The translations under genes were made by a program, and so were the position numbers. A DNA stretch of 33,061 nt from Candidatus Thorarchaeota archaeon (GTDB lineage: Archaea > Asgardarchaeota > Thorarchaeia > Thorarchaeales > Thorarchaeaceae): NCBI GenBank assembly GCA_048882325.1, contig JBHLRS010000032.1, forward strand, positions 1-33,061, given 5' to 3'. Numbering within the stretch: the stretch's first letter is position 1; every line of letters starts with the position of its first letter. The notes beneath the pieces are model-generated. The model saw only the letters and a program-made list of their open reading frames with translations. It did no database searches and was not told the DNA's origin. Below are positions 1,131-3,754 of this stretch, in pieces.

Positions 1131-1199
1131 TCAAAAGCTATACCGGTGTCTGTCAGGGAACTCTTGCTTCTTCGCAAGGTTGAAAGAACTGTGCGCTTT
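1131..1199 (-). repeat. Degenerate copy 4 (most distal) of the nrdD 3' end
   Basis: Reverse complement translates KAHSSFNLAKKQEFPDRHRYSF* versus NrdD QALSSFNPSKKQEFLDRHRYAL* (15/22 identical, stop in register). Confidence 0.92.
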
Positions 1200-1305
1200 G
1201 TCTCATGTGTTCATCAGTTAAAGGGCAAAGTCCATGTTTCATCAAGAAGTCATGCAATGATGAAATAGTCCATAAGGAAGCAAGGCCAATATCAGACAGG
1301 CGTAA

Positions 1306-1983
1306 TTGGTGGACGGTTGTGTAGGAAAATCAGTTCTATTGCGGATTGTTGCATGTATAGTTGTTTTTGTACTTGTGGTTCAGTTAGTGTCAATTTCCAC
1401 ATCTGAGTCACCGGTCATCATTTATGAACCTGAATGGAATGTGATAAAAGGAAGTCTCCTTACATACGAAATAAACGTGACAGGGGACCGAGATGAATTG
1501 AACGGGTTGTACTCATATCAATGGGTACATCTCAATAATACAAGAATCATTGTAAATGTGACATATCTCCCAAATCTTGTTGAGTTCTATACCTCAGAAA
1601 ATTTCATTCTGGATGTGGTTGACGTTCAAAAAGTGGTTTGCTGTTTTGAGAATGGAACTTCCCTTTCTGAATCAGACTCATTTGTTAGTACACTTATTTC
1701 CAGGGCCTTATTGCCAGTTTCTTCATGGAAAAACTTCGATTCCATGTTCCCGGATCATTTCAGTGGGCAATGGGAGATGTATGAGCCAAACTATTCGTGG
1801 GTAGCAGGTTTTGAAGGGGATCGCTTCTTCTTTGGATATCTGGGAGAATCATGGCATTTTTCCAGAGGATGGAGCGCGCAGATAGAGTTGACATCAGGCA
1901 TTCCTTACAGAATAGAAAATCATGACAACTATCATGACTATGGATTCACAACTGATATAATTGAATTGACTCTTGTGGACTAA
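1306..1983 (+). CDS. Hypothetical membrane-anchored/secreted protein; paralogue of 2114..2773
   Basis: N-terminal hydrophobic helix, several N-x-S/T sequons, colinear motifs shared with the next gene (W-x-V, LNxTxIxVxxTYLPxL, KVxCxFxNxT, (L/I)PVxxW, terminal ELTL). Exact start uncertain. Confidence 0.8.
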   Translation: MVDGCVGKSVLLRIVACIVVFVLVVQLVSISTSESPVIIYEPEWNVIKGSLLTYEINVTGDRDELNGLYSYQWVHLNNTRIIVNVTYLPNLVEFYTSENFILDVVDVQKVVCCFENGTSLSESDSFVSTLISRALLPVSSWKNFDSMFPDHFSGQWEMYEPNYSWVAGFEGDRFFFGYLGESWHFSRGWSAQIELTSGIPYRIENHDNYHDYGFTTDIIELTLVD

Positions 1984-2012
1984 TTTCAGAATCGCAAACA
2001 AGAGCGAACCAA

Positions 2013-2057
2013 TCATATCCCATAAAGAAACCTGTCCAGAAATTCCTGTTTCTTTGG
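2013..2057 (-). repeat. Degenerate, shortened copy 3 of the nrdD 3' end
   Basis: Reverse complement translates PKKQEFLDRFLYGI*; KKQEFLDR identical to NrdD, Tyr and stop in register. Confidence 0.88.
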
Positions 2058-2113
2058 TAGAAAAATCTAAGAGGAGTCTATCCTTGACTATTGATTTAGA
2101 GGGGGTTTCTCAT

Positions 2114-2773
2114 ATGAACCGCAATAAAACGATCCTCGTTGTGATGTTAGTTTCAGCGGGTATTCTCGTAGGGTTTCTACTCATTCCTCCAGCATCAAAT
2201 CCGGAACAGGTTGAGTTTCAGGGGGAATGGATGGTGAGTGTAGGCGAAATATACCAGTTTGAGATTGAGTCATGGGGTGCGTACATTTATGGCAATTATG
2301 ATAATTCTGAAATTGATCAGTTGGTGGGCTTAAATGGAACTGTGATAAATGTCACAATAACGTATCTCCCAACTCTTGACTTTATAATCAATAGGACAAC
2401 ATTTGAGAACGACATTGTTGAAGTCGGAAAAGTCGCATGCATTTTTAGTAATGAGACTGAGTTACCTCCCACCTGGTTAAATGTGATATCTACATCAATA
2501 TCAGGATGTATCATTCCTGTTGGTGATTGGTCCATTCTCGATGCATATCATCTGACTTTCGAACAAGTATGGGAGGACCCCCTCTGGGATGAAACCTATT
2601 TTTCAGACCTGCTTGACGACAACTTCAAATTTGGTCATTTCTGGTGGGGAATGGATGATACGGAGATATGGACAGGGACAGTATCACTCGACAATGGATT
2701 TCCTACCATGTTATCTTGGTCGTATGATCACATGTATGGTCCAATCGAACTTGAGCTCACTTTGAAGTCTTAG
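2114..2773 (+). CDS. Hypothetical membrane-anchored/secreted protein; paralogue of 1306..1983
   Basis: Start moved to ATG 2114 (MNRNKTILVVMLV..., basic N-terminus plus hydrophobic helix, GAGGGGG upstream). The ORF-track extension to 1973 runs across intergenic repeat copy 3. Confidence 0.85.
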   Translation: MNRNKTILVVMLVSAGILVGFLLIPPASNPEQVEFQGEWMVSVGEIYQFEIESWGAYIYGNYDNSEIDQLVGLNGTVINVTITYLPTLDFIINRTTFENDIVEVGKVACIFSNETELPPTWLNVISTSISGCIIPVGDWSILDAYHLTFEQVWEDPLWDETYFSDLLDDNFKFGHFWWGMDDTEIWTGTVSLDNGFPTMLSWSYDHMYGPIELELTLKS

Positions 2774-2786
2774 CCCTCTTGCACTT

Positions 2787-2858
2787 TCATAGAGAATATC
2801 TATGTCTATCAAGGAACTCCTGTTTCTTCGCAGGATTGAAAGAGGAAACTCCTTGAAC
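2787..2858 (-). repeat. Degenerate copy 2 of the nrdD 3' end
   Basis: Reverse complement translates VQGVSSFNPAKKQEFLDRHRYSL*; 18/22 identical from the Gln, 8 codons differ only synonymously. Confidence 0.96.
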
Positions 2859-2982
2859 GTTATCACACGCTTCTTGTGAAATTGATGTTCTTTTACAAGA
2901 GAAATGGAACTAATAAACTGCAAATATGAAAATATGCAATTCAAGAAATATTAAGAAGGTGAATTGTAGACCATTGGCTTAG

Positions 2983-3663
2983 ATGGGATCAATGAATCAA
3001 GTTTCTGATGCCGAAACTGCTGAAATTGTGTGGAAAAGGTTCTACAGAATTGGTGTAGTAGCAGCTCTAAGTATAGTAGCATTATTACTTATAGGGATTA
3101 TCGGAATCATTTCCTCAAGTTTACAATCAACCACCAATAATGACTGGTTCGCACAGATTCAAAATAACTGGCTCGTTGTACTTTTCAAACTGAATGCTGG
3201 GTTTAGCGGAGTTCAGCAGGACTTGCTTATGACAATCGATCTATTGGATATTGTCATCATGATTCTCGTGGGTATTGTGTTTATCCCCCTTTATGCAGTA
3301 CTCAGAAACACTAGTAGAATCTGGTCGTTAATTGCTGCATTGCTACCGTTTGTAGGGATACCTATCTTTCTTGTAACAGCTACAGCTGGTCGTAGCAACC
3401 TGTTGATTGGAGGATTAATAATATCAGTAATCATGCTGCGGAGTAACATCTTTAGCAAAGTAACATCCTACATTGGAATAGTGGCAAGCTCACTTCTATT
3501 CTTCACTGGTGATATAGCTACAGCTATCTTCACTTCTTCTAGCATAGTTGCTATGTTCATAGCTGTGGGGTATGTGCTTTGGATGACATGGTTCCTCCTA
3601 ATTGCCCAAAGGATCTTTCAGCTTGGACATAGCGTTTCGGAAGACAGTGTGAAACGGAATTGA
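2983..3663 (+). CDS. Multi-pass membrane protein, DUF4386-like
   Basis: About 6-7 hydrophobic segments; WKRFYRIGVVAAL and DWFAQIQNNWL resemble DUF4386-type membrane proteins (recalled, not searched). Confidence 0.7.
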   Translation: MGSMNQVSDAETAEIVWKRFYRIGVVAALSIVALLLIGIIGIISSSLQSTTNNDWFAQIQNNWLVVLFKLNAGFSGVQQDLLMTIDLLDIVIMILVGIVFIPLYAVLRNTSRIWSLIAALLPFVGIPIFLVTATAGRSNLLIGGLIISVIMLRSNIFSKVTSYIGIVASSLLFFTGDIATAIFTSSSIVAMFIAVGYVLWMTWFLLIAQRIFQLGHSVSEDSVKRN

Positions 3664-3679
3664 ACCGAATTGTTTGGTA

Positions 3680-3754
3680 TCAGAGTGTATATCGGTGCCT
3701 ATCCAGAAATTCCTGTTTCTTTGCGGGATTGAATGACGAAAGTGACTGGAAGAA
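3680..3754 (-). repeat. Degenerate copy 1 (most proximal) of the nrdD 3' end
   Basis: Reverse complement translates FFQSLSSFNPAKKQEFLDRHRYTL*; 19/22 identical from the Gln, 10 codons differ only synonymously (including Ser AGT vs TCA), stop TGA vs TAG. Confidence 0.97.

Follow-up and report, generated by a model that had tools for sequence, protein, structure and literature searches.

A gene-cassette array behind nrdD in a Thorarchaeota genome, delimited by copies of the nrdD 3' end

Introduction

Additive flexible genomic islands grow by tandem accretion at the 3' ends of tRNA and tmRNA genes, as described for Alteromonas (PMC4898812) and for the tycheposon islands of Prochlorococcus (10.1101/2020.12.28.424599). 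Can a protein-coding gene anchor an array of this type, and can it do so without a linked integrase? Here we describe such a locus on a stretch of 33,061 nucleotides, the window, from Candidatus Thorarchaeota archaeon (assembly GCA_048882325.1, contig JBHLRS010000032.1), where copies of the 3' end of nrdD, the gene for class III ribonucleotide reductase, alternate with cargo genes. The genome that holds the window is designated G000 (assembly 93% complete) and its contigs are given C-numbers, the window being C32; other G and L numbers refer to genomes and loci of relatives. As in additive islands, a conserved gene is followed by stacked cassettes, with a direct repeat of the gene's 3' part closing each one and the gene itself restored; the number and order of cassettes vary between genomes, and cassettes are common to several species. 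Unlike in those islands, the anchor encodes a protein, the repeats are synonymously recoded and chimeric, most units are single genes, and no integrase is found in or beside them.

Displaced 3' gene pieces also pile up downstream in orphan displacement arrays, such as the effector/immunity arrays of Vibrio type VI secretion systems (T6SS) and the orphan tips of Rhs and contact-dependent growth inhibition (CDI) systems (PMC5361080). Homologous replacement and one-sided insertion have both been proposed for the Vibrio arrays, with no dedicated recombinase (PMC5361080). In T6SS, Rhs and CDI arrays the variable protein tip is the payload, whereas the nrdD tail is functionally constant and serves only as a handle, with unrelated cargo and a fixed left edge to the repeats; no variable toxin tip with a cognate immunity gene was found in the nrdD arrays. 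Integrons comprise IntI, attI and attC. The nrdD arrays resemble them in having gene-sized cassettes in variable order, with tight 3' spacing, that are reshuffled and shared between genomes, but differ in having no IntI, no hairpin site and no fixed crossover nucleotide, breakpoints being spread along the tail, and in carrying cargo in both orientations. Tn7-like elements, for which nrdD has been proposed as a target in archaea and bacteria, including next to an element in a Promethearchaeota genome (10.1101/2025.07.27.667033), share nrdD as conserved landing gene. They generally insert outside coding sequence and carry tns genes, whereas the junction of the nrdD array lies inside the gene, with up to 75 nt of its end duplicated. 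By the tests that define them, the nrdD array does not qualify as an integron, an integrase-bearing island or a Tn7-like element. Literature searches returned no published description of such arrays.

Results

Copies of the nrdD tail alternate with cargo genes

On balance, we favor the view that gene cassettes accumulate additively behind nrdD, with its 3' end as the anchor of the array, and that host RadA-type homologous recombination adds, swaps and deletes them. The tail copies would then be handles for recombination, shuffled among relatives, and would give no dates for alleles or donors. In the window, four tail copies lie 3' of nrdD and in the same orientation, with stops at 3680, 2787, 2013 and 1131 and one cargo gene between each (Table 1). 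Each copy corresponds to the final 15-25 codons of nrdD. The first 77 bases of the window overlap perfectly with contig C84, and a single NosD-like open reading frame (ORF) of 641 aa spans the join, which is thus supported by both the overlap and the continuous ORF. C84 contributes a fifth, almost intact tail copy (C84:1076-1129), the farthest from nrdD, followed by the cargo of cassette 5 and conserved flank genes; the array therefore consists of six units, with tail-to-tail spacings of 963, 893, 774, 882 and 2182 bp. Outside the window, the copy on C84 is the sole further nrdD tail in 3.6 Mb. Tail and cargo of cassette 2 recur together on C84 (78% over 653 bp), and the cargo stop of cassette 1 is 17 nt from the stop of tail copy 1. 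A reversed-pattern control yielded 0 matches in 86 genomes, so the tail copies are not due to chance. An assembly artefact is unlikely, since arrays recur in dozens of independent assemblies.

At least two pattern matches were obtained in 14 of 27 congeners, with more genomes holding copies that are seen in their nrdD loci, and at least seven further genera of the family have tail copies. Ten copies within 6.7 kb are present on one metagenome contig (L098), which also has an intact nrdD (L088); several family members have no copy within ~17 kb of nrdD. In other Asgard families short copies were not evident with this query, which has low sensitivity there. Across the family, cassettes mostly measure 0.4-2.2 kb, with up to 10 copies per array and a median copy spacing of ~820 bp; 90 units contain ~50 cargo families in mixed orientation (46 antisense, 34 sense). 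The cargo families tested comprise luciferase-like oxidoreductase, NosD-like, tetratricopeptide repeat, Zn-ribbon, hydrolase, ParA-like and unknown proteins. Shared cargo genes show nonsynonymous-to-synonymous rate ratios (dN/dS) of 0.15-0.34, indicating purifying selection. One insert, 16 kb between the native tail and a copy in G030 (L040:2165-18470), holds two TBP genes, a type I restriction-modification system and a Holliday-resolvase-like nuclease, and no integrase.

Tails are chimeric, and the mobile unit extends from half-tail to half-tail

What moves between genomes? DNA alignments of the same cassette from different genomes begin and end inside the tails. Tail positions -11 to ~+12 track the upstream cargo and positions +45 to +63 the downstream cargo, while central third positions track neither. 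The breakpoints of same-cassette pairs range from ~-9 to +27 (one at +42) on one side and from -8 to +62 on the other. Cassette pairs with 98-100% identical flanks still differ in the tail centre, and tails therefore recombine faster than they mutate. The first-pass annotation of the window, made from the sequence alone, had treated each tail as the end of one allele; the tails are instead recombinant mosaics with scattered breakpoints. Judged from these alignments, the mobile unit is a half-tail, cargo and a second half-tail. The same cassettes occupy different ranks in different genomes, including the place directly behind intact nrdD. Cassette 0, for instance, is also present in G003 and G013, one rank further out (DNA identity 87-90%, dN/dS 0.15-0.26), and the 3' part and trailer of the resident nrdD tail group with this cassette.

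Tail copies derive from working nrdD ends and are unordered within the array

Copies were compared with resident nrdD over the last 22 codons, stop included. Copy 1 differs by 11 synonymous-only codons (10 plus the stop, TAG>TGA) and 3 amino-acid changes, including AGT>TCA; copy 2 by 8 synonymous-only codons (7 plus the stop) and 4 amino-acid changes. Copy 3 is shortened and has HR>FL, and copy 4 shows L>H, P>L and L>P and, one codon beyond on the left, Q>K; this last change and L>H sit at its worn left edge and may represent flank sequence instead of mutation. The four copies and these counts had been described essentially correctly in the first-pass annotation. Its claim of synonymous enrichment withstands a formal test, both for each of copies 1-4 (core from N to stop; p = 6e-5, 0.011, 0.025 and 0.003) and for the five copies pooled, where 40 of 76 differences are synonymous versus ~20% expected (p ~3e-10).

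The tail protein is near-invariant (pN 0.02-0.1 from position +10), and divergence between copies and natives resembles that among natives (pS ~0.8-0.95, pN 0.06-0.10 from position +10 on). Across relatives, a stop (TAG, TGA or TAA) is retained where natives have theirs in 80 of 91 core-intact copies, and each of the three is in use, as among natives. Synonymous bias and retained stops together imply that the copies derive from working nrdD ends. Only 4 of 35 copies find their best match in the resident (mean percentile 0.48), which lies no nearer to them than a native picked at random; this agrees with the earlier proposal that the tails are not neutral duplicates of the resident gene. In one genome, G008, copy and resident share 46 identical nt. 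Duplication of the resident tail at each insertion is ruled out by the lack of within-host excess identity, and a CRISPR/casposon-type target duplication was rejected both on this distance from the resident and because Cas1 had no match in 5 genomes. Of the protein-level selection that had been proposed for the tails, the part concerning their origin stands; selection after displacement does not follow from synonymous bias, because the same signature arises when copies are kept close to a pool of coding targets.

Does distance from nrdD reflect age? Departures at 30 near-invariant positions number 1, 0, 8, 2 and 1 for copies 1 to 5, from nearest to farthest. The suggested decay with distance is thus not seen in G000, where the farthest copy is almost intact. 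Over 29 arrays the distal copy is the more decayed one in 72 versus 44 pairs (p ~0.04; pairs not independent), but after removal of the last copy of each array the counts are 31 versus 30 (p = 0.50). The trend rests entirely on last copies, the interior is unordered, and a strict chronology fails; an old distal end of the array is plausible.

Tails match their own genus

Copies 1, 2 and 5 match natives of their own genus at 41.8-43.6 of 54 nt, compared with 42.4 for native against native and ~37-38 for other genera, and copies in other genera carry the residues of that genus. Donors from different lineages, as originally suggested, are therefore not apparent at the genus level, where copies match natives as natives match each other; finer donors are unresolvable because synonymous sites are saturated over 54 nt. 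Copies 1, 2 and 4 share an Ala where resident nrdD has Ser. Ala is the consensus, present in 26 of 27 natives of the genus, so the resident Ser is the derived state, and the shared Ala was discarded as a donor signature. The earlier expectation that cargo should be found directly after intact nrdD elsewhere is borne out for the NosD-like cassette of copy 4, which has this position in another assembly (L088, 73% identical). In L038 (G025) and L072 (G083), nrdD ends with residues typical of other genera; in G083 this foreign-looking native end is followed by a genus-type displaced copy, and G025 has no array. By their sequence, these two ends suggest occasional cross-genus allele replacement.

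Copies begin sharply after the glycyl-radical codon

The copies start directly after the glycyl-radical codon, at RITG/YLQ (the slash marks the edge). Among 50 unrelated upstream flanks, similarity jumps at the Tyr codon; it is at background at -17 to -13, and 31 of 50 match at -11 (p = 3e-5). Where YLQ is intact (27 unrelated flanks), only 4 include the GG of the preceding Gly codon and 1 the Thr-Gly codons. From this boundary, left edges trail off rightward as if worn down; only a few copies are long, with about 43, 46 and at least 68 codons. In a genus whose tail sequence differs, the edge is again at Tyr, and no conserved arm lies to its left beyond a weak A at -20. Many antisense cargo genes begin 60-130 nt from the edge. 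The start of the identity block is hence defined at Gly/Tyr, while present-day breakpoints are scattered. In L087 (2582-2698), L109 and L113, a decayed partial tail directly adjoins a fresh one, 53 bp further on, which is what repeated use of a single site predicts.

No recombinase was found within the arrays

G000 has no match to PF00589, PF00239, PF00078, PF02371, PF01867, PF14528, PF00961 or PF06527 (the last searched without a positive control), that is, to a tyrosine or serine recombinase/resolvase, IS110, reverse transcriptase, Cas1, LAGLIDADG or TniQ. Tyrosine recombinases occur in only 8 of 27 congeners; they belong to unrelated families and none lies inside an array. Likewise, a local integrase hidden Markov model detected none in any array locus, including the 16-kb insert. 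TniQ had no match in 5 genomes, and none in the control genomes either. RadA-family genes are present in 5 of 5 genomes. In IMG/VR we found no spare nrdD tail, the single match being a viral nrdD; in L150 a viral nrdD has long in-frame inserts. On one G030 contig (L249; G030:C17, 3-686 and 11434-11496), a decayed tail copy lies 11 kb from a tyrosine recombinase gene among mostly unknown ORFs, any link between the two being tentative. No attC-like hairpin emerged, since folding (z ~-0.5 versus synonymous shuffles) is within the range of other nrdD windows. A required TCCTG/CAGGA dyad was ruled out, as array-bearing genera lack it and no folding signal exists.

Similar arrays at other 3' ends

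The etfA-like gene of G000 (C48:11433-14592, L154) is followed by two decayed tail copies, each after one cargo gene; family-wide, etfA copies begin at HLAGM, after the conserved SGAIQ. A 34-bp actin tail copy (C3:109121-109154, L248) lies 2.4 kb downstream of the actin gene. The longest actin copies, 3 of ~22, begin K-M-W-V, and no short copy extends further. The same actin Lys codon (F-Q-K/M-W) bears a 30-nt insertion in six genomes (G034, G066, G072, G065, G081 and G062; L258, L269-L273), which has an in-frame stop and a bulge-helix-bulge fold and whose removal restores the frame. This match of intron and edge is one coincidence and only a lead, because no such intron occurs at the nrdD edge in ~55 native ends. 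Copies of tRNA-like 3' ends lie between single small genes: four on C20, two behind tRNA-Glu and one behind tRNA-Thr. Several cargo ORFs of the tRNA-like arrays end inside the repeat.

Discussion

How might cassettes come and go? A cassette consists of the right part of a tail with its stop, one or few cargo genes and the left part of the next tail. Under RadA-type recombination, DNA of a close relative would undergo two crossovers, one in the body of nrdD and one that joins a spare tail to the resident tail; the cassette would thereby enter the first place, nrdD would be restored, and its former end would be pushed outward as a hybrid copy. Alternatively, a circle looped out between two tails would re-enter by one crossover. 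Recombination between tails would delete or circularise cassettes. We infer these steps of addition, swap and deletion from sequence. As nrdD would be restored in each round, the essential gene would be a safe entry point; repeated rounds would scramble the tails, so that they sample the allele pool of the genus and do not date alleles. Scattered crossovers and the RadA-family genes fit recombination by the host. Several points weigh against this view. Its weakest step is how a cassette was first founded: random illegitimate joins would not produce so sharp a left edge, and ordinary recombination leaves it unexplained. Some 75 bp at ~80% identity is short and divergent for RecA-family recombination. 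Assemblies are incomplete (93% for G000) and often lose mobile elements, and the pair counts for decay are not independent. We infer that cassettes were founded by a defined cut or exchange at the Gly/Tyr edge, made by a putative trans-acting enzyme.

Could a transient virus or integrative element, with an attachment site that carries the nrdD end from Gly/Tyr, have provided that enzyme in trans as an integrase? Cassettes would then be satellites or remnants, as in the tRNA-anchored tycheposon islands, their tails blurred by later recombination. The sharp left edge at nrdD, the separate edges at etfA and actin and the restoration of the gene on insertion all speak for it, as does the G030 contig with a tail copy 11 kb from a tyrosine recombinase; moreover, most Prochlorococcus islands hold no element at a given time (10.1101/2020.12.28.424599). 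We nevertheless consider it unlikely: no integrase is seen in any array locus, even the 16-kb insert, IMG/VR holds no spare tail and only a viral nrdD as match, breakpoints are scattered, and to the left of the edge nothing is conserved beyond the weak A at -20. The first-pass annotation had read the tails as ends of diverged alleles, probably from different donor lineages, that decayed after displacement, the newest nearest nrdD. In a fuller form of this model, each foreign nrdD allele would enter complete with the gene behind it, through homology-facilitated illegitimate recombination, and replace the former end, which then decays; order would give age and each tail its donor lineage. The same mechanism has been proposed for Vibrio T6SS immunity arrays (PMC5361080), and it would accommodate the synonymous bias, the kept stops, a last copy that is often the most decayed, the few long copies and the foreign-looking native end of G083 with its genus-type copy. 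However, interior copies are unordered (31 versus 30 pairs), copy 5 is intact, tails are chimeric with local genus residues, and random illegitimate joins should give no fixed edge. This largely refutes the model, which we hold to be very improbable.

Still less probable, in our estimate, is that the repeats are kept as DNA or RNA elements (part of a promoter, a terminator, an attC-like hairpin or a TniQ-type binding site) and not as recombination homology. A few synonymous positions do show unusual conservation (Pro CCT, Lys AAG), the starts of many antisense cargo genes lie 60-130 nt from the edge, and it has been proposed that nrdD serves Tn7-like elements of archaea as an attachment site (10.1101/2025.07.27.667033). 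Yet most third positions are saturated (pS ~0.8), each of the three stops is in use, folding energy does not depart from background (mean z ~-0.5), the search for TniQ, which had no positive control, gave no match, and in genera whose tail sequences differ the edge is still at Tyr.

The same layout at etfA, actin and tRNA ends favors a general route over an nrdD-specific integrase. It is conceivable, if quite doubtful, that Thorarchaeota possess a lineage-wide, integrase-free gene capture that opens essential genes near their 3' ends, at nrdD RITG/YLQ, etfA SGAIQ/HLAGM, actin FQ/KMW and tRNA ends, and in which one cutting activity founds both the arrays and tRNA-type mRNA introns. The arrays reveal the sites and the units in which an Asgard lineage acquires and exchanges accessory genes (surface, membrane, metabolic, restriction-modification) with no resident integrase. 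In three protein genes the edges are defined and follow conserved catalytic or cofactor motifs, which provides exact coordinates for seeking the founding enzyme, and the actin coincidence ties cassette capture to a testable idea on intron gain in close relatives of eukaryotes. A caution also follows against reading such tails as a dated chronicle of alleles or donors.

Further features of the locus and its relatives

Table 1. Features of the nrdD array in the window, and tRNA-like 3'-end copies elsewhere in G000
Feature	Position	Strand	Remarks
nrdD, class III ribonucleotide reductase, 713 aa; array anchor gene	4643..6784	-	PF13597/TIGR02487 match
Resident nrdD tail, Tyr following the glycyl-radical Gly through stop	4643..4717	-	75 nt; usual maximal repeated unit
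Cassette 0 cargo, 246 aa	3838..4578	-	without Pfam or NCBIfam match
Tail copy 1	3680..3752	-	left part common to copies behind same cargo in G003, G013
Cassette 1 cargo, 226-aa hydrophobic protein	2983..3663	+	convergent; weak DUF4386, E = 0.022
Tail copy 2	2787..2857	-	every scored invariant position intact
Cassette 2 cargo, 219 aa	2114..2773	+	hydrophobic N-terminus
Tail copy 3	2013..2059	-	shortened; most decayed among five copies
Cassette 3 cargo, 225 aa	1306..1983	+	distant paralog of cassette 2 cargo (28% identity, E = 3e-17)
Tail copy 4	1131..1198	-	moderately decayed
Cassette 4 cargo, 5' part of 641-aa NosD-like repeat protein	1..974	-	continues on C84
tRNA-like 3'-end copies	G000:C20:43513-46104 (L155); C63:10840 and 11248 (L156); C20:40647		

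Upstream of the array (window 6781-8825), a glutaredoxin-like gene overlaps the nrdD start, and thyA and an Lrp/AsnC regulator lie divergently upstream; this arrangement is kept in relatives. The single-contig chromosome of G067 (CP070761.1; L078, L287) has two tail copies at ~400-402 kb and an intact nrdD end at 2.50 Mb. In L046, L047 and L299 (G028, G029 and G099), nrdD is interrupted near residue 220-230 by a long in-frame insert that, from its sequence, is probably an intein. Elsewhere in G000 (C2:147107-149633), a gene for a 423-aa membrane-transporter-like protein has a 36-bp copy of its 3' end 1.2 kb downstream.

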